A stretch of 64,000 nt of DNA from IMG/VR virus record IMGVR_UViG_2861084961_000001; one strand, 5' to 3'. The notes beneath the pieces were generated by a model. It was given only the letters and a program-made list of their open reading frames with translations. It was not told the DNA's origin and ran no database searches. Each line of letters begins with the position of its first letter. Position 1 is the stretch's first letter. The position numbers were made by a program, and so were the translations under genes. This DNA comes from a virus (Duplodnaviria > Heunggongvirae > Uroviricota > Caudoviricetes). Shown one piece after another: positions 10,112 to 54,470 of the stretch.

Positions 10112-10186
10112 GATGGTGTAGCTCAGCGGTAGAGCAGTTGGCTGTTAACCAACTGGTCGGTGGTTCGAATCCACCCACCATCGCCA
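10112..10186 (+). tRNA. tRNA-Asn (anticodon GTT)
   Basis: Cloverleaf by eye: acceptor gatggtg/caccatc, anticodon loop ctGTTaa, T-loop ggttcgaat, CCA end. Confidence 0.8.
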
Positions 10187-10191
10187 ATTTA

Positions 10192-10278
10192 GGGGAGTTA
10201 GTCCGTAGAGGTAGCGGTGTAGACTGTAAATCTACTGTCATGGCGACTCGGGTGGTTCGACTCCATCACTCCCCACCA
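10192..10278 (+). tRNA. tRNA-Tyr (anticodon GTA), type II with long variable arm
   Basis: Acceptor ggggagt/actcccc, anticodon loop ctGTAaa, T-loop ggttcgact, CCA end. Confidence 0.75.
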
Positions 10279-10282
10279 AATT

Positions 10283-10358
10283 GCCGGTTTAGCTCAGTTG
10301 GTAGAGCGCCTGCCTTGTAAGCAGGATGTCAGCGGTTCGAGTCCGTTAACCGGCACCA
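10283..10358 (+). tRNA. tRNA-Thr (anticodon TGT)
   Basis: Acceptor gccggtt/aaccggc, D-arm agctcagttggtagagc, anticodon stem cctgc/gcagg with loop ctTGTaa, CCA end. Confidence 0.75.
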
Positions 10359-10582
10359 ATACAACGATAAGATCATTACGGTTAATCGTCGTTCATGTGC
10401 ACAATGACTGGTCGAAAGGTAGTGATCTTACCGTTGTGGTGGATTCGCAGACTGATGCGATAGCTTTCTTGGATGTTAGGGAAATGCGGCCGCAAATCTT
10501 CCCTTTCGCGAGCGGTGATCGTCCGTAGTCCTAATTGGCTGCACCGTATGCCGGAGATTCAGTACCGGCCACCACAACGGCC

Positions 10583-10669
10583 GGAGAGTAGGGAGCATGG
10601 TGCTCAAGCTGTCTTGAAAACCGCCCCATTGCGCAAGCGATGATGGTTCGATTCCATTACTCTCCGCCA
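10583..10669 (+). tRNA. Type II tRNA-like gene, anticodon TGA (Ser?), imperfect stems
   Basis: Acceptor ggagagt/actctcc, loop ctTGAaa, T-loop ggttcgatt, CCA; anticodon stem and variable arm pair poorly, may be non-canonical or pseudo. Confidence 0.5.
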
Positions 10670-48227: not shown

Positions 48228-48833
48228 TTGAGAAAGAAGATGATTGCAGCCGAAAAAATCAAACAGCGAAAGCGCGACAACTCTCTTCGTGACCTCTGGA
48301 GAACACCTGATTGGCTGTTTTCTGCCATTCAACGTTATCTTGGGGTGACATTTGATGTTGACGTTGCCTGCAACAAGGACAATGCAAAGCTGCCTAATTT
48401 CATAGGCGTTGAGCGTGATGCTTTGAAATCTGAATGGGGACAGCCAGGTACAATTGCCTTCCTCAATCCACCCTACTCCAAAATCTCCCCCTGGATTGAT
48501 GCTGCTATACGTGAGCAGGCTCGCGGAGTTACAACAGTGATGCTAATTCCTCAATCCCTCGATACAAAGTGGTATGAGCGTGCAACAGAGTATGCGAATG
48601 AGACGATTATTCTGTCTGGTGGCCGCGTAGCGTTTGTCGAGCCTGACGTCAATTTGGGTCAGGTAGAAGTAAACATCAACCCCGGTGGCAGTATGCTCGT
48701 TGTTTTTCGAGGATTCTGTCAGGACGCTGGGCACTCTATAAGCAAGATCCCTTTGGACGTAATGAAAAGTCTGGGAGGGTATGATCCTGCGAATGTGGTC
48801 AGGAAAAAAAGACCATCAAAGAAGGCTGCTTAG
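48228..48833 (+). CDS. Phage-type DNA N6-adenine methyltransferase (orphan)
   Basis: Catalytic motif FLNPPYS; ~200 aa; no adjacent restriction endonuclease. Confidence 0.7.
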   Translation: MRKKMIAAEKIKQRKRDNSLRDLWRTPDWLFSAIQRYLGVTFDVDVACNKDNAKLPNFIGVERDALKSEWGQPGTIAFLNPPYSKISPWIDAAIREQARGVTTVMLIPQSLDTKWYERATEYANETIILSGGRVAFVEPDVNLGQVEVNINPGGSMLVVFRGFCQDAGHSISKIPLDVMKSLGGYDPANVVRKKRPSKKAA

Positions 48834-48858
48834 TTTGTTCTGGCGAGTGTAATTAACC

Positions 48859-48912
48859 TGCTTCTGTATATAAATAACTACATATTAATTATTAATATAC
48901 GGAAGCAGGCTG
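48859..48912. repeat. Large hairpin cctgcttctgtatat...atatacggaagcagg, second copy of element at 2249..2306
   Basis: Near-identical stems in both copies. Confidence 0.6.
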
Positions 48913-49018
48913 TTTTGTATCAGAGACTCCCAGACCTGAACACCACTACAGAATCCACTAGAACCCCTTCTCAGACGCTTTAAAATCGATTTTATGAACC
49001 ACTTTAAGGAAAACTAAC

Positions 49019-49249
49019 ATGTCATACCCGACCAATGTTGTTGCGCTCGTAGAGAGCGATTTTCTGGCTAAGGCTCGTGAAATGATGAAAGATCGCGAGC
49101 AGGCTTTCAACTTGTACGAATGGGCAATTAAGTGCTTGCATCTTGGGGAGCATCGCGAACTTGTTGAACAGCTTTTAGGTGAGTTGATCAACGAGGTGTT
49201 TGCCTTGAATGTTCAACTACATGGTCGAGAAAATAACCAATCGAAATGA
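49019..49249 (+). CDS. Hypothetical protein (76 aa)
   Basis: ORF with RBS AAGGAAAACTAACATG. Confidence 0.4.
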   Translation: MSYPTNVVALVESDFLAKAREMMKDREQAFNLYEWAIKCLHLGEHRELVEQLLGELINEVFALNVQLHGRENNQSK

Positions 49250-49830
49250 TAGATAAGTACAAACTATTCATAAGATGGATTGTAAGTGCTAAGATCTGAT
49301 AGTTTCCAGTCGTAGACTGGAGACTCGACCTGATGGGTGGGGGTAAGCGTCACTGGCGTCAGGTTTAAAAAAGCTCACTACCAGCGTAGAACCGGTGCCG
49401 TTTAGGTGTCGGGGAAGGGGGAACCAAAGTGAGCGGAGACAAGGGTCACTTTATGATTGTCGAGTCTGGGATGTTTCGAGAGGTTGAATCCAGTACTCCC
49501 CTTCATAAAGTGTGGGAAGATCTCGGTTCTGGGGTGCTGTCATCCATAACTTCCCAAGTCTAAGCTGGCAGTAGACTTAGACCATAGCTTTTCAGGTTAT
49601 GAAACGACCAGGTTGGTGAGGAATTTTATACTCACCTCCCTGGGAGAGTATTACCTGAAAAGACAACCTCTCACTTCGTTCGAGGTGAACTTCACTCACT
49701 TCGTTCGTTCAGTTCAGGTTTATAAAAACCTGTACTGGGAAGTAATTTGTTTATTTTAATAATTATTACACGCACGCGTGTGCGCACGCGCGAGGAAAAA
49801 ATCGGCGCGGCGCTTGATTCAGGAGTTTAT

Positions 49831-50421
49831 ATGACGTCGAAGACACCAGCCCGGTCGCAAGCAAAAACTCGCAAAAAAGACAAAAACAAAAATTCTCCCC
49901 GCACCAATCCCACAACGCCTGTCGTAGAGTTCAATCCCCAGCTTAAAACCGTGAAAATCTTCAGTGATGGCTCTTGCCTTAAAAATCCGGGTGGCCCGGG
50001 CGGTTACGGTATAGTTCTCCAGTATCGTGGTGAGGAACGCGAGTTCTCAGATGGTTTTCATAGCACCACCAATAACCGCATGGAGATGATGGGGGCACTT
50101 ATCGGGCTGGAGCGTTTGAAATATCCATGCAACGTTATTTTGCACTCTGATAGCCAGTATCTGAAAAACGGCATGACACAGTGGATGAAATGGTGGAAAC
50201 GCAATGGATGGATGACTTCTGACAAAAAACCGGTAAAGAATGTTGATCTGTGGAAGCGTCTGGATGAGGCCGCAAGTCGACATAATGTTCGCTGGAAGTG
50301 GGTTAAAGGTCACGCCGGGCATCGTGAAAATGAAATATGTGATCGACTCGCGAAGATCGCAGCTTTTTCCGCAGCAGATATGCCTCACAAGAAAGATATT
50401 GGTTTTGTTTATAACAAGTAG
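49831..50421 (+). CDS. rnhA: Ribonuclease HI with short basic N-terminal extension
   Basis: [62 protein letters not shown] closely match E. coli RNase HI; start at ATG 49831 rather than ORF start 49747. Confidence 0.85.
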
Positions 50422-52076: not shown

Positions 52077-52643
52077 ATGTGCAAGAAATGCAAAGCGATA
52101 GCTGATGAACAAAACGCCTTATTCGAAGAAATGGATGCTAATGAACTGGTCAAAATGTTAGCCATTCTTCGAGGAATAGAAGACGTTTCCATATTTGAGA
52201 GAGTGGTTACAGCACTTAATTTTGAGTCCACCTTTGAAGAGCCAACTCAGGTTGTAGCTTTAGCACATCATTTCGGTGTTCATTATCTTGCTGAAAAAGA
52301 GAGAGCTGATAAGTTGCAAGCGACTTTGGATATGGTGAGCGAGACTCAAGGAACTCATGACGGTAACAAAAGTGAGACGATTATTGCCAGCAAAGATCGT
52401 GAAATTGCCGGGCTTAAATCCTCTCTAACGATGTTGATGTCTGCAATTAACCTTATGTCTTCTAAAGCAGGTTATAAAATGCCATCACTAAACAGCGACG
52501 ATCCGATGGCCGTTCGCCAGCTTTTAGGTGCAATGGCCGACCAGCTCGACGACACAAAGAGTCGCCTTGAAGACATGATGCGGGAGCTCACGCATCGCCA
52601 TGACTTGAATAAGCAGCCACACAAAACGCAATACGCACTCTAA
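52077..52643 (+). CDS. Hypothetical coiled-coil protein (188 aa)
   Basis: Conserved start context. Confidence 0.45.
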   Translation: MCKKCKAIADEQNALFEEMDANELVKMLAILRGIEDVSIFERVVTALNFESTFEEPTQVVALAHHFGVHYLAEKERADKLQATLDMVSETQGTHDGNKSETIIASKDREIAGLKSSLTMLMSAINLMSSKAGYKMPSLNSDDPMAVRQLLGAMADQLDDTKSRLEDMMRELTHRHDLNKQPHKTQYAL

Positions 52644-52784
52644 TACTGCACCAGTCGACAGGGGGCGAAAGCCCCCATTTTTACGCCTTAAATCTGCTGT
52701 AACGCCTATGAATGCAGCTTTTATGCCTTTTCAAGTTTGCGATAATTACACCAATAAGAAAACAAATTATTTAATGGTGTAATT

Positions 52785-54470
52785 ATGAATACAGCCCTTT
52801 CCATCATCGACGATGCCAGCTCAAACACGGCTATCGACTATCGTCAGGAAATGAATGTCATCCACGAAATCGTGGACGAGTGCGAGAAAGAGATCGCCTT
52901 CATGTATCAGGTACACGACTTCGTTTATGGCGACGAACGCCACAACATGATTAATCGCCTGCTGAGACTAAACCATCGACCAGATGAAGATCGCTCGCGT
53001 TTAAATCGAGGTTGGTTGGATAAAGTTGATCTGGAATGGGTGAAACAGAATATTTGGGCCGAGTACTGGAGGAAGGTCACGGACATGACTAACGTTTTGC
53101 TGATCATGCCAGCTTCCCGTCGAGATGAGTGGCGCGAGCAGTTTATAGAGGGCAAACAGGAAGTCATCAAAACTGACAGAACCGGCTACCAGATGAAGGT
53201 TAAAGAGTTCGTTGGTGTACCGGAGTTCAAAGCAGAAACGGTCATACCCACGATGCTTAATTTGCTGAATGACAGGCACAAATATCTCTCTGAGCGCGTG
53301 TATGGCTTGTTTAAGGCGCTGAGTCCTGCGCACAAGACAAATAAGACAAACGGTTTCAGCGAGCGTCTGATAATCGCTGACTGCATTTCTGATTTCTGGC
53401 GGGACAGCGTTAGCGTGAACTATCGCAAAGAGGACTACATCGACGATCTGCGTGTCTTGCTTCATTTCTTCGCGCACAAAGAATTTATTACCATCAACCG
53501 CACTGCTGAGGTGCTATCAGCTGCGTATCGGGCAAACGACTGCCAGACCGGTGACTGGATGAACGTCGATGGAAATCTGATGCGCGTGAAGATGTTCAAG
53601 AACGGCAACGTTCACTTTGAAATACATCCTGACGTGGCCTGGAAGTTGAATGAGGTGCTGGCTTACAGTATGCCTGCTGCAATCCCCGCGCCATGCCGAA
53701 CTGCGCCAAAAACACGGGCACCAAAGCAGTTCGGTTTAATCCAGAAGACGATCTCCGTGCCGGTTCGCACTGCGCTTCGTGACGGGCGATTGAGCAAAGA
53801 CAAAGGCGTATGGTACTTCTCTGATTCAGCTCTCCAGAAGTCGCAGGTGGAAGAGCTTGAGCGCACACTGAGCTTCATTGGCGGCGTGCAGGAGAAAAAG
53901 CACTGGCAGTTCCCGTATGACATCGGCCATACGCTAAATACGATTGTGGCTACCGGTTTAATACCGGATACAAAATCACACCAGTTCTACCCTACCCCAC
54001 GCTTGATTGCTGAGTACGTTGCCAGAGCCACTGAATTGAAGCCTGGTGAGAAGCTGCTTGAGCCTCACGCCGGACGTGGGGATCTTCTGGCCTATATTAA
54101 CGCCGATCTGGAAGATGTTACCTGCATAGAAATCGCACCTCTCTTCGCTGATATCCTGCGTGGAAAAGGGTATACGAACACGATTTGCTGCGACTTCATA
54201 AAGTGGTCTGAGGACAACGCAGGTTATCAGTTCGACAAAATCGTTATGAACCCGCCGTACTCGCTTGGTCGTCATAGGGAGCACACGATGGCTGCGCTGG
54301 GGCATCTGAAAGTCGGCGGGCGTCTTGTAGCAGTATTGCCGGGCACTGCGCCAATACTGGACTGGATGACGATGGATAATTACGTTTATGCCAGAGGGAA
54401 GTCGTTTACCAACGAGTTTGAAGACACAGGGATCACAGTCAGCGTATACGTTTTCAAACGCGTTAAATGA
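52785..54470 (+). CDS. Large protein with C-terminal N6-adenine DNA methyltransferase domain and ~400 aa N-terminal domain of unknown function
   Basis: FYPTP, LLEPHAGRGDLLAYI (SAM-binding) and VMNPPYS (catalytic) in C-terminal third; 561 aa intact ORF. Confidence 0.7.
   Translation: MNTALSIIDDASSNTAIDYRQEMNVIHEIVDECEKEIAFMYQVHDFVYGDERHNMINRLLRLNHRPDEDRSRLNRGWLDKVDLEWVKQNIWAEYWRKVTDMTNVLLIMPASRRDEWREQFIEGKQEVIKTDRTGYQMKVKEFVGVPEFKAETVIPTMLNLLNDRHKYLSERVYGLFKALSPAHKTNKTNGFSERLIIADCISDFWRDSVSVNYRKEDYIDDLRVLLHFFAHKEFITINRTAEVLSAAYRANDCQTGDWMNVDGNLMRVKMFKNGNVHFEIHPDVAWKLNEVLAYSMPAAIPAPCRTAPKTRAPKQFGLIQKTISVPVRTALRDGRLSKDKGVWYFSDSALQKSQVEELERTLSFIGGVQEKKHWQFPYDIGHTLNTIVATGLIPDTKSHQFYPTPRLIAEYVARATELKPGEKLLEPHAGRGDLLAYINADLEDVTCIEIAPLFADILRGKGYTNTICCDFIKWSEDNAGYQFDKIVMNPPYSLGRHREHTMAALGHLKVGGRLVAVLPGTAPILDWMTMDNYVYARGKSFTNEFEDTGITVSVYVFKRVK

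Follow-up and report, generated by a model that had tools for sequence, protein, structure and literature searches.

Only a small number of large RNAs without an assigned function have been described in bacteria and phages. Among the large structured noncoding RNAs known there are GOLLD and ROOL, which are carried by phages and prophages; GOLLD rises during lysis. Other RNAs of plasmids, phages and organelles serve as primers for replication, the precedents being RNA II of ColE1/pMB1, the oriF and oriG transcripts of phage T4, and the mitochondrial LSP transcript. A third group, the c4 RNA of P1/P7, the CA RNA of N15 and the CI RNA of P4, consists of short immunity RNAs of about 70-90 nt that pair within their own transcript. 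Here we examine a locus that invites comparison with each of these systems. It lies in an SSU5/pHCM2-like phage-plasmid of E. coli, of which we analysed a stretch of 64 kb (the window) that matches E. coli plasmid pG749_2 at 100% identity; the whole element is about 110 kb long and its genes lie nearly all on one strand. Phage-plasmids of this kind are frequent among clinical Enterobacteriaceae and bring resistance and virulence cargo with them, yet the annotation of one of their best-conserved segments is either missing or limited to a spurious small ORF. We propose, with a probability that we put at roughly 0.55, that this segment is a self-contained + strand gene for a highly folded noncoding RNA of about 455 nt that matches no described family. 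We refer to it as the type-A RNA.

The gap upstream of rnhA and its proposed RNA

By direct reading of the sequence, the gap measures 581 nt between the stop codon of a 76-aa ORF (49247-49249) and the ATG of rnhA (49831), and it is the largest of the 13-kb neighbourhood as annotated in relatives (Table 1). The initial annotation had described it as unusual in a genome where most gaps are under 100 bp, which is only roughly true, since gaps of 350-390 bp occur elsewhere in the element. Pfam and PHROG searches assigned no function to the 76-aa ORF. The RNase HI encoded downstream has at its N terminus a basic extension of about 40 aa, and its gene is preceded by the ribosome-binding site AGGAG at 49821-49825. 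Elsewhere, the element encodes T4-like replication and recombination proteins, namely a gp32-like SSB, a RecA-like and a DnaB-like protein.

Table 1. Coordinates of the features in and around the gap (window positions).
Feature	Coordinates	Strand	Remarks
76-aa ORF, phrog_5343	49019..49249	+	upstream neighbour of the RNA
Degenerate palindrome copy, GATAAGTACAAACT	49252..49265		from alignment; perfect copy in SSU5-type relatives
Putative RNA promoter	49267..49295	+	weak -35 TTCATA 49267-49272, 17-nt spacer, TG 49287-49288, -10 TAAGAT 49290-49295
5' terminal hairpin	49301..49325	+	sequence differs among sublineages, pairing kept
Proposed type-A ncRNA	49302..49757	+	about 455 nt; both ends putative, to within a few bases
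Conserved RNA core	49324..49746	+	88-99% identical across relatives from six genera
Spurious 44-aa ORF	49429..49563	+	annotated as CYRAN_81 in phage Cyrano
13-mer CTCACTTCGTTCG, copy 1	49670..49682		flanks CCTC/GAGG
13-mer, copy 2	49695..49707		
Putative terminator-like 3' region	49715..49759	+	hairpin CAGGTTTATAAAAACCTG at 49715-49732, closing-helix strand CTGGGAAGT, U-rich tail AAUUUGUUUAUUUUA
AT-rich spacer	49746..49766		differs in sequence and in length from relative to relative
Perfect alternating purine/pyrimidine tract, (CG/CA)-type	49767..49792		26 nt, TACACGCACGCGTGTGCGCACGCGCG
A-run	49796..49801		6 nt here, 4-9 nt in relatives
rnhA, canonical RNase HI	49831..50421	+	Pfam RNase_H E = 1e-44 over residues 40-178; PHROG Rnase H

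The earlier statement that 49250-49830 contains no convincing ORF is borne out: only short ORFs of at most 48 aa are present, none of them conserved and none hydrophobic. In 15 of 41 relatives the 44-aa ORF is disrupted by in-frame stops or by indels of 1 or 2 nt, and it is therefore not a conserved coding sequence; its name, CYRAN_81, is useful only as the label under which RNA-seq counts appear. One might nonetheless suppose that the gap encodes this small protein, or a type I toxin with a folded mRNA of the hok/sok kind, as the ORF is annotated and expressed in Cyrano and hok-type mRNAs are textbook cases of highly folded, abundant transcripts of about 400 nt. Given the frameshifts and stops, the lack of any other conserved or any hydrophobic ORF, and a consensus scan that showed no antisense promoter across the 5' region, we consider this highly improbable.

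Conservation is greater within the proposed RNA than around it. In bins of 50 nt, identity is 0.88-0.99 in the core versus 0.79-0.86 in the flanking coding sequence, with about 94-99% across genera at 49499-49697 and a fall after 49746; overall, the genes on either side are about 80-85% identical among relatives. A noncoding query matches relatives in Klebsiella, Salmonella, Enterobacter, Citrobacter and Cronobacter at 88-92% identity, against 78-82% in the same relatives over 1451 bp including the flanking genes. The type-A RNA was matched in 686 plasmids of PLSDB. Of 5426 complete E. coli genomes, 232 (4.3%) have it, with no annotation under the match, and we detected no similarity between it and the E. 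coli chromosome. It is kept where betT or other genes replace rnhA. The replicons that it accompanies include IncFIB, rep_cluster_488 and rep_cluster_763, and the type of RNA does not track the type of replicon. We searched for distant homologues with exact and gapped patterns in IMG/VR, in GTDB genomes, in metagenomes, by tblastn with the upstream ORF and with an nhmmer profile, and every true homologue found was at least 86% identical; 13 metagenome matches proved to be chance matches located in coding DNA. At gathering thresholds, Rfam 15, whose families include GOLLD, ROOL, group I and II introns, RNase P, tmRNA, 6S, riboswitches and leaders, returned three tRNAs for the whole window and no family for the RNA, and at E values up to 10 it gave weak chance matches of miRNA type for 48800-50000. 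In the literature on SSU5, phage-plasmids and ncRNA we found no description of the type-A RNA; a preprint on phage-plasmid copy number turned out to concern a different family.

The + strand of the gap folds at -173 kcal/mol (z = -5.8), and the predicted fold comprises about 19 helices with 128 pairs, in which 99.7% of cells are paired. Canonical pairing reaches 99.6% on the + strand, with 604 G-U cells, versus 88.6% on the - strand. Compensatory changes affect 11 pairs (102 cells), versus 1-4 pairs (4-10 cells) when the partners are slid. None of 500 shuffles reached the observed covariation score, a test that kinship can inflate, as the relatives are all at least 86% identical and their covariation stems from few independent events. 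The covariation is confined to six helices, five of them in the 5' two-thirds and the sixth being the 3' hairpin; in helix 1, the 5' hairpin, both sides have changed in three of six pairs. The most conserved 250 nt are invariant across about 120 sequences, and the addition of 54 metagenome copies brought no new covariation.

The constraint on these invariant 250 nt could act at the level of DNA. On a rival reading the whole region is a DNA element only: its conservation would come from protein-binding sites, from an origin, or from a site of packaging or recombination, the alternating tract would be a Z-DNA or supercoil-sensitive switch, and the transcript would be incidental. The absence of covariation from the best-conserved part favors such an element, but the compensatory changes in six helices do not, nor does G-U pairing on the + strand only, which a double-stranded DNA site would not give. 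The conserved -10, the covarying 5' hairpin and the discrete expression peak described below also argue against it, and we regard it as very unlikely.

Transcription, 3' end and a possible link to RNase HI

The sequence upstream of the RNA contains what may be an extended -10 promoter (Table 1). Its -10 is conserved in all relatives as TAAGAT, TAAAAT, TACAAT or TAGAAT, and its TGn in most. A simple consensus scan listed neither this promoter nor a terminator for the RNA; the sole - strand promoter-like site in that scan (49308-49279) points away from the RNA. In the reading that we prefer, a folded noncoding RNA, transcription would start at about 49302 from this promoter with its weak -35, and the RNA would open with a protective 5' hairpin and fold into its predicted helices, six of which the covariation covers. 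Its 3' end would fall near 49746-49760, at a closing helix with a U-rich tail behind it. The 3' region is formed by helices 17 and 19, with one compensatory pair in the hairpin at 49715-49732; the U-rich tail lies 3 nt past the closing helix in three of four subtypes and is weak in the Klebsiella subtype.

Expression data exist for phage Cyrano, which is 97% identical. By RNA-seq, the segment is at 117 fpkm, the upstream ORF at 9.5 and rnhA at 8.4, counts that may not be strand-specific; the strands are plotted separately in the paper (PMC9928086). In Table 1 and a supplementary table of PMC9928086, the value of the segment in lysogens is given as 12-fold above the background of the prophage, and by these counts the segment exceeds both of its neighbours about 12-14 times, rnhA by 14-fold. 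In the lysogenic or plasmid state most transcripts would stop at the 3' end of the RNA, so that the RNA accumulates with little transcription into rnhA; we infer that termination causes the difference in expression between the two. The initial annotation had suggested a structured ncRNA in the upstream 450 bp or so, and this suggestion now finds support in a core that is better conserved than the flanking genes, a strand-specific covarying fold, and independent expression. The checks proposed along with it yielded no Rfam match, an expression peak in Cyrano and compensatory pairs, and on the two points by which the idea was to stand or fall, the region is both transcribed (Cyrano RNA-seq) and conserved in relatives.

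A second lineage offers a view of the same locus with a different occupant. Sister phage-plasmids of Klebsiella have, at the same position before RNase H, an unrelated covarying RNA of about 450 nt, which we call type B, and the 76-aa ORF adjoins the RNA in both lineages. Type B ends in an intrinsic terminator (a 7-bp stem followed by T7-8) that abuts the RNase H start codon, and it is kept where RNase H is replaced. Neither blastn nor nhmmer detected homology between types A and B. The two 9-mers that they share lack colinearity, and by our own estimate chance would account for them. That RNase H comes after a large RNA twice, with RNAs of unrelated type, is a hint of a functional connection, of which our preferred explanation makes no use.

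Could the RNA instead serve rnhA in cis? As a leader or attenuator it would sense a signal and gate the polymerase into the gene, and the abundant RNA would be the terminated by-product. The RNA lies on the same strand as, and directly upstream of, the RNase H gene in both lineages, the type-B terminator touches the start codon, and expression drops 14-fold across the RNA/rnhA junction. In addition, the palindrome GGTAAGTACTTACC, found throughout the element ahead of many transcription units and 13 times in the window versus 1.27 expected, is present before the RNA and after rnhA and absent between them, and the consensus scan listed no + strand promoter between the RNA and the gene. But a length of about 450 nt far exceeds known leaders of such a sort, no riboswitch or leader family matches, and the RNA is far better conserved than rnhA and stays unchanged before unrelated cargo (betT, hypothetical genes). 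We consider a leader function unlikely; it can coexist with, and in part belongs to, the explanation that we prefer.

The main rival to a free noncoding RNA is a primer for a replication origin, in which the folded transcript would form a persistent RNA-DNA hybrid at the AT-rich and alternating region and be cut by RNase HI to leave a 3'-OH for the leading strand. In its favor, two unrelated large structured RNAs directly precede RNase HI at one locus, and a size of about 450 nt together with constitutive expression in the plasmid state resembles RNA II. The T4-like replication proteins of the element, the G-runs in the first 150 nt of the RNA, and the AT-rich stretch and structure-prone tract that follow its 3' end also fit, as do the 13-mers discussed below, whose - strand can fold into compact hairpins of a shape that single-strand priming signals are known to have. 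On the other hand, the type-B terminator and the type-A U-rich tail suggest that the RNA is released rather than held in a hybrid, the RNA is retained without rnhA, rnhA is expressed 14-fold below the RNA in lysogens, and the RNA type is independent of the plasmid replicon type. The consensus scan showed no RNA I-like antisense promoter inside the 5' region, and GC skew does not turn at 49.8 kb, a weak point as the genes lie nearly all on one strand. On balance, a primer role seems rather unlikely to us.

A blastn-short search of the whole 110-kb element, which covered extended Watson-Crick complementarity, gave best matches to the RNA of 11-16 nt, below the best of 40 shuffled queries, and the predicted loops are also invariant. 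By exclusion, we infer from these two observations that the RNA would act in trans by its shape, binding a protein or other partner, and not as an antisense regulator.

The 13-mer module and the cargo-exchange spacer

The 3' part of the RNA contains a pair of 13-mers (Table 1), besides which we found no direct repeats or iterons in the gap. The motif reads C-GA-AC-GAA-GT-GA-G on the - strand, and the RNA sense strand has the pyrimidine version. The second copy with its flanks (49688-49714) is identical to a module of unrelated marine T4-like phage contigs. The 13-mer is found in the DNA of unrelated genomes in both orientations, and in variants elsewhere the inner pair is retained along with a loop of GNA or AAA. 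More broadly, a motif that may form hairpins capped by C-GA-xC-GNA-Gy-GA-G recurs both in marine phages of the T4-like kind and, as tandem arrays, in genomes of bacteria and archaea; this motif is absent from Rfam and we did not find it in the literature, where searches for the 13-mer and for its common flanks gave primers only. Rfam scans of the sister-lineage loci and of the unrelated 13-mer loci returned only tRNAs. The 13-mer is predicted to form better structures on the - strand than on the + strand, and nearest-neighbour models give its hairpins modest energies only. Both its strand preference and its presence in unrelated genomes in either orientation are what a DNA-level element might display, but the locus has no iteron-like repeats beyond this one pair. 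Two resemblances were set aside. The motif matches the anticodon arm of E. coli tRNA-Pro(CGG) in 11 of 12 bases, but the similarity ends there and the fold is unlike a tRNA arm, and we treat the likeness as a coincidence; and a match of the 13-mer loop to what we take to be a conserved 23S segment (9 of 11 bases, chance expectation about 0.5) was dropped.

A wider and tentative reading, which we hold to be less likely than not, is that the SSU5-supergroup phage-plasmids have a new class of large structured RNA, about 450 nt long and represented at one locus by two or more unrelated "alleles", that is functionally coupled to RNase HI and whose type-A form has an unlisted hairpin motif in its 3' module. 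Such coupling could mean, for example, that RNase H processes them into primer or R-loop RNAs for a second (lytic) origin, or that they form a new RNA-based determinant of specificity or immunity.

Beyond the RNA lies the alternating tract that had first drawn attention to the locus. The run is real, and its extent, given earlier as 25 nt at 49768-49792, is in fact one base longer (Table 1); it ends 38 nt before the ATG, in agreement with the estimate of about 40 bp. It is the longest alternation in the 64-kb window, the next being 14 nt, and none of 300 first-order Markov simulations reached 26 nt (mean maximum 16.3, largest 24). This statistical exception could be taken as a further argument for a DNA-level switch. 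Among relatives the tract occurs in 17 sequence variants of 14-29 nt, with alternation kept in 60 of 60, and in the sister lineage with the same gene order it is absent. The kept alternation fits a proneness to Z-DNA, but judged from sequence it is equally expected from two-base slippage and transitions. We read the tract as a probable hypermutable simple repeat that is, in principle, Z-DNA-prone.

Of the two structures ascribed to the tract in the initial annotation, the Z-DNA-prone one agrees with the sequence (26 nt of perfect alternation, rich in CG/CA). The cruciform-prone one does not: the palindromes CACGCGTG (49773-49780) and GTGCGCAC (49780-49787) overlap and are not conserved among the 17 variants, and at 8 bp in total, with no spacer, they fall short of the arms of roughly 10 bp or more that a plausible cruciform would take. 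Nor does the tract form the end of one functional element, as had been supposed, for it lies in a poorly conserved spacer (identity about 0.64) past the likely 3' end of the RNA. Cargo replacement in relatives starts right after AAAAATCG (about 49806). The tract, the AT-rich spacer and the A-run together are an unstable simple-sequence spacer outside the conserved RNA, and the site of cargo-swapping recombination. As a cargo-exchange junction, this spacer bears on how SSU5/pHCM2-like elements acquire genes.

Comparison with known systems

An RNA that is as conserved as ribosomal RNA, made in lysogeny, and swapped in a sister lineage for an unrelated RNA of the same size is likely central to maintenance, replication or protection of the element. 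The region merits annotation as an ncRNA rather than status as a protein-coding "moron", and the type-A RNA adds a genetically tractable enterobacterial case to the few large bacterial and phage RNAs that have no assigned function.

Set beside the (CG)n/(CA)n tracts known to form Z-DNA, the alternating tract is similar in its perfect 26-nt alternation, its richness in CG/CA and its persistence in relatives, which would suit such a structure; it differs in that its length varies from 14 to 29 nt and that the sister lineage lacks it. The 13-mer resembles the GNA-triloop mini-hairpins of the d(GCGAAGC) type, which are extra-stable DNA hairpins: its - strand is predicted to form a triloop, C(GAA)G, that sits on a stem of 2 bp and is bracketed by tandem G.A. 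Unlike those hairpins, its modelled energies are modest. Hok/sok-type systems share little with the gap, which offers neither a conserved hydrophobic ORF nor, by the consensus scan, an antisense promoter over its 5' region.

Like RNA II of ColE1/pMB1 (about 450-550 nt), the type-A RNA is constitutive, highly folded and located on a plasmid-form replicon, with a genetic link to RNase H, G-runs, and a downstream A-run and GC-rich segment. Unlike RNA II, it has no homology to that family (no Rfam match), no antisense promoter of the RNA I type was seen, its terminator-like 3' end precedes the proposed hybrid site, and SSU5-type elements also have replicons of the iteron/RepA type. With GOLLD and ROOL it shares a length of several hundred nucleotides, many helices, a noncoding nature and a function that is not obvious from context, as well as a temperate phage-like carrier with tRNA genes elsewhere in the genome. 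It differs from both in matching neither Rfam family in sequence or structure and in having hosts among the Enterobacteriaceae only, and from GOLLD in being expressed in lysogeny. Compared with the c4, CA and CI immunity RNAs, it is far longer, at about 455 nt, and we found no complementary site for it in the element. But as with c4 of P1/P7, CA of N15 and CI of P4, lysogeny is accompanied by an RNA that comes from the 5' part of a transcription unit, the downstream genes of which are kept low, and sister lineages have different RNAs at one locus, as specificity determinants do.

The non-coding gap upstream of rnhA

By sequence, the window is a member of the SSU5/pHCM2 phage-plasmid group: the 1451 bp around the gap match E. 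coli plasmid pG749_2 (NZ_CP014490.1) at 100% identity, three Escherichia phages (PhiR41_1, Cyrano, CMS-2020a) at 97-98%, and at 78-82% Salmonella phage SSU5, S. Typhi pHCM2 and many ~110 kb plasmids of Klebsiella, Enterobacter, Citrobacter and Cronobacter. The gap lies in a DNA-metabolism module whose gene order is thymidylate synthase, DHFR, DnaQ-like exonuclease, Dam-type methylase, 76-aa ORF, gap and RNase HI (rnhA); a ribonucleotide reductase, a gp32-like SSB, a RecA-like protein and a DnaB-like helicase are encoded elsewhere in the window. The initial annotation had singled out an unusually long non-coding region before rnhA, and we find the same: between the upstream stop at 49249 and the rnhA ATG at 49831 lie 581 nt holding only short ORFs. 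In 15 of 41 relatives, 1-2-nt indels or stops disrupt the one that is annotated in Cyrano, CYRAN_81.

Several other features of the element deserve mention. A long hairpin behind the methylase gene is probably a bidirectional terminator. The palindrome GGTAAGTACTTACC has 13 sites in the window with at most 3 mismatches, where 1.27 would be expected, and is probably an operator or promoter element for an element-encoded regulator; a degenerate copy lies upstream of the putative RNA promoter described below, and SSU5 has a perfect one. The canonical RNase HI domain is preceded by a basic extension that may be a nucleic-acid-binding tail. Of the four tRNAs in the cluster, the Rfam gathering threshold reports only three, and metG is annotated in the same phage-plasmid.

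Features of the locus and of compared loci (window coordinates unless an accession or an L-handle, denoting another retrieved locus or contig, is given)
Feature	Location	Remarks
Type A, proposed + strand RNA	49302-49757	~455 nt; conserved core 49324-49746
-10 hexamer	49290-49295	TAAGAT, TAAAAT, TACAAT or TAGAAT
CYRAN_81 ORF	49429-49563	inside conserved block
13-mer CTCACTTCGTTCG	49670-49682; 49695-49707	invariant 3' part of type A
Alternating tract	49767-49792	26 nt
A-run	49796-49801	between tract and rnhA RBS
Type-A cargo junction	~49806	directly after AAAAATCG
Cargo-exchange junctions, type A	L008:1935-2265; L009:1991-2126; L069; L080; L081	after tract and A-run
Cargo-exchange junction, type B	L230:917-984	after terminator
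Type B RNA	L226:2726-3220; L227:2726-3225; L230-L232	~450 nt, covarying
Marine/viral 13-mer loci	L090:9032-9245; L095:103-137; L098:1103-1137; L097:288-323	
Second segment, marine T4-like contigs	L090:9250-9400; L095:140-290; L099; L100; L103	compensatory changes between contigs
AT-rich perfect hairpin	48853-48911	CCTGCTTCTGTATATAAATAAC...GTATATACGGAAGCAGG; directly after methylase gene
GGTAAGTACTTACC sites	13896; 38666; 48212; 50424; 54473; eight more	starts of intergenic regions
RNase HI N-terminal extension	49831-49950	~40 aa, Lys/Arg/Thr/Pro-rich
tRNA cluster	10112-10669	Asn-GTT, Tyr-GTA, Thr-TGT, Ser-TGA
metG	L229:45045-45910 (pG749_2 52295-54328)	methionine-tRNA ligase

Evidence for a proposed structured RNA

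A 586-nt non-coding query matches 686 plasmids and 12 phage records, and among complete E. coli genomes the segment is present in 232 of 5426, nearly always on a plasmid and with no annotated feature under it. From 49324 on, identity is 88-92% even in other genera, against 78-82% for the same relatives when the flanking genes are included. Mean pairwise identity in 50-nt bins is 0.79-0.86 in both flanking coding sequences, rises from 0.72 to 0.88-0.92 across 49300-49498, reaches 0.94-0.99 across 49499-49697 and drops to 0.64-0.67 between 49747 and the rnhA start, so that at the sequence level the core of the gap is better conserved than the adjoining genes. A set of 67 metagenome loci contributed 54 further close relatives and none that were distant, and over ~120 copies the 3' half of the RNA is essentially invariant.

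The initial annotation had suggested a structured non-coding RNA here, and such an RNA is indeed probable, as covariation, conservation and expression agree. Because the -10 hexamer keeps its position in all sublineages, with TGn ahead of it in most and a weak -35 at 17 nt upstream, we place the putative transcription start near 49302. A hairpin takes up the first 25 nt of the proposed RNA, its pairing kept while its sequence is completely different between sublineages. The 3' end has a closing helix and a small covarying hairpin, then 3 nt and, in 3 of 4 subtypes, a U-rich tail, where conservation ends. The gap region folds at -173 kcal/mol on the + strand (z = -5.8) and -143.6 kcal/mol on the - strand (z = -4.9). 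RNAalifold predicted 132 pairs from 41 distinct sequences, or 128 after removal of one 4-pair hairpin in the spacer, and these 128 are standard in 99.7% of cells. Covariation, the check proposed at the outset, was found in 11 pairs changed on both sides (102 cells), compared with 1-4 pairs (4-10 cells) when partners were slid by 1-3 columns, and none of 500 shuffles reached the observed score. It is confined to six helices, five in the 5' two-thirds plus the 3' hairpin; the remaining helices are invariant and are neither supported nor contradicted by it. Read on the + strand, the predicted pairs are 99.6% canonical and include 604 G-U cells; read on the - strand, they are 88.6% canonical. This asymmetry fixes the RNA strand as + and speaks against a constraint acting on double-stranded DNA alone. 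Type A matches no known family in Rfam scans and appears to be a new one.

More distant phage-plasmids were reached by tblastn with the 76-aa ORF (45-51% identity). Among them, 30 Klebsiella plasmids (e.g. pCAV1099-111) keep the order of methylase, small ORF, ~500-650-nt gap and RNase H, yet their gap (type B) has no detectable similarity to type A and no Rfam match. It exceeds its flanks in conservation (0.80-0.90 vs 0.67-0.85), starts with a covarying 5' hairpin, has 136 predicted pairs of which 15 are compensatory in only five sequences, and ends in a clear stem and T7-8 terminator right before the RNase H start. Type B carries no alternating tract and is kept in one member where RNase H is replaced; the RNase H of this lineage also has a basic extension, but a different one. 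Judged by sequence, the locus holds at least two non-homologous RNA versions, and both precede RNase H, so that in the wider group a large structured RNA goes with this position.

The invariant 3' part of type A contains two copies of a 13-mer, which may act in RNA or in DNA. Fifteen unrelated IMG/VR contigs, marine T4-like phages among them, also carry a pair of copies 10-40 nt apart; there the second copy and its flanks show 26 nt of full identity, and the stem about the first covaries. A reversed-sequence control pair had no viral matches. The 13-mer is also present at more than 120 loci in genomes of bacteria and archaea (L106-L225), mostly in tandem arrays and at times beside tRNA genes. 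It usually caps a hairpin of variable stem, sitting flush in the loop of a stem of at least 4 bp in 22% of 255 contexts vs 0.7% of controls. Type A has the pyrimidine version on its sense strand; the complement reads C-GA-AC-GAA-GT-GA-G, in which tandem G.A flanks a short stem topped by a C(GAA)G triloop. Its general form is C-GA-xC-GNA-Gy-GA-G, and the commonest genome variants (GAGCGAAGCGA, GAACAAAGTGA, GAGCGGAGCGA and GAGCGCAGCGA) retain the inner pair together with a loop of GNA or AAA. Nearest-neighbour models give this - strand fold as expected, at only modest energies. We found the 13-mer neither in Rfam nor in the literature, and its likeness to tRNA-Pro(CGG), at 11 of 12 bases, looks coincidental. 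In the marine T4-like contigs another conserved segment (AGAGACAGG...CCTGTTTGCCACTGG...TCTCT) comes after the pair, within a 600-900-nt non-coding region running from gp55 to a UvsW-like helicase gene; this segment may be a further phage RNA that lacks annotation.

The alternating tract and the cargo junction

The purine-pyrimidine run counted at first as 25 nt does alternate perfectly and contains both palindromes named in it, while its length is one more, 26 nt; the next longest in the window is 14 nt, and none of 300 Markov simulations gave a run of 26. Low identity from 49747 on places the tract outside the conserved block, as a separate feature and not the business end of the element. A cruciform also fails, the 8-bp palindromes varying between relatives and being too short to form one. 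Alternation is perfect in 60 of 60 distinct relatives, over 14-29 nt and 17 sequence variants, but two-base steps and transitions keep it automatically, and it is therefore weak evidence of selection. The neighbouring A-run is a second hypermutable simple repeat, 4-9 nt long and varying even between nearly identical E. coli copies. These sequence comparisons suggest that the tract is an unstable simple repeat within the spacer that separates two modules. It may be prone to form Z-DNA and may be a hotspot of recombination, and an influence on rnhA is possible. Overall, the initial observation is confirmed and its interpretation half right.

In several relatives rnhA is swapped for betT or hypothetical genes, with the RNA block, tract and A-run all kept, and the breakpoint after the RNA unit is a cargo-exchange junction. 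Replacement cargo can also be a gene on the opposite strand.

Expression and possible function

In Cyrano, a phage of E. coli LF82 that is 97% identical here, the supplementary table gives CYRAN_81 117 fpkm, while the upstream ORF has 9.5 and rnhA 8.4, in counts that are possibly not strand-specific (the plots separate by strand), and values reach 2^10.3 under other conditions (PMC9928086). The putative repressor is expressed at a similar level. The RNA appears to behave as a unit of its own and not as part of the rnhA message. Neither lack of transcription nor lack of conservation, the outcomes named as telling against an RNA, was found, given this RNA-seq signal and a core above its flanking genes in identity.

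What might such an RNA do? An antisense immunity RNA of the c4 or CI type is disfavoured because no other part of the 110-kb element is significantly complementary to type A, and a type I toxin mRNA because there is no conserved small ORF. By exclusion, and because even the predicted loops are invariant, we favour a stable trans-acting RNA that would be made in lysogeny and act through its shape, its putative terminator also holding rnhA low. The main rival is a primer RNA processed by RNase H at an R-loop origin: a large RNA is repeatedly paired with RNase H and the element has T4-like replication proteins; we found no iterons and no GC-skew turn, and RNA type is independent of plasmid replicon type. 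It could also be a long attenuating leader of rnhA, which overlaps with the shape-dependent RNA that we favour. The proposed type A RNA is large, extremely conserved and expressed; it is frequent among isolates from the clinic, has so far no annotation and lends itself to experiment.
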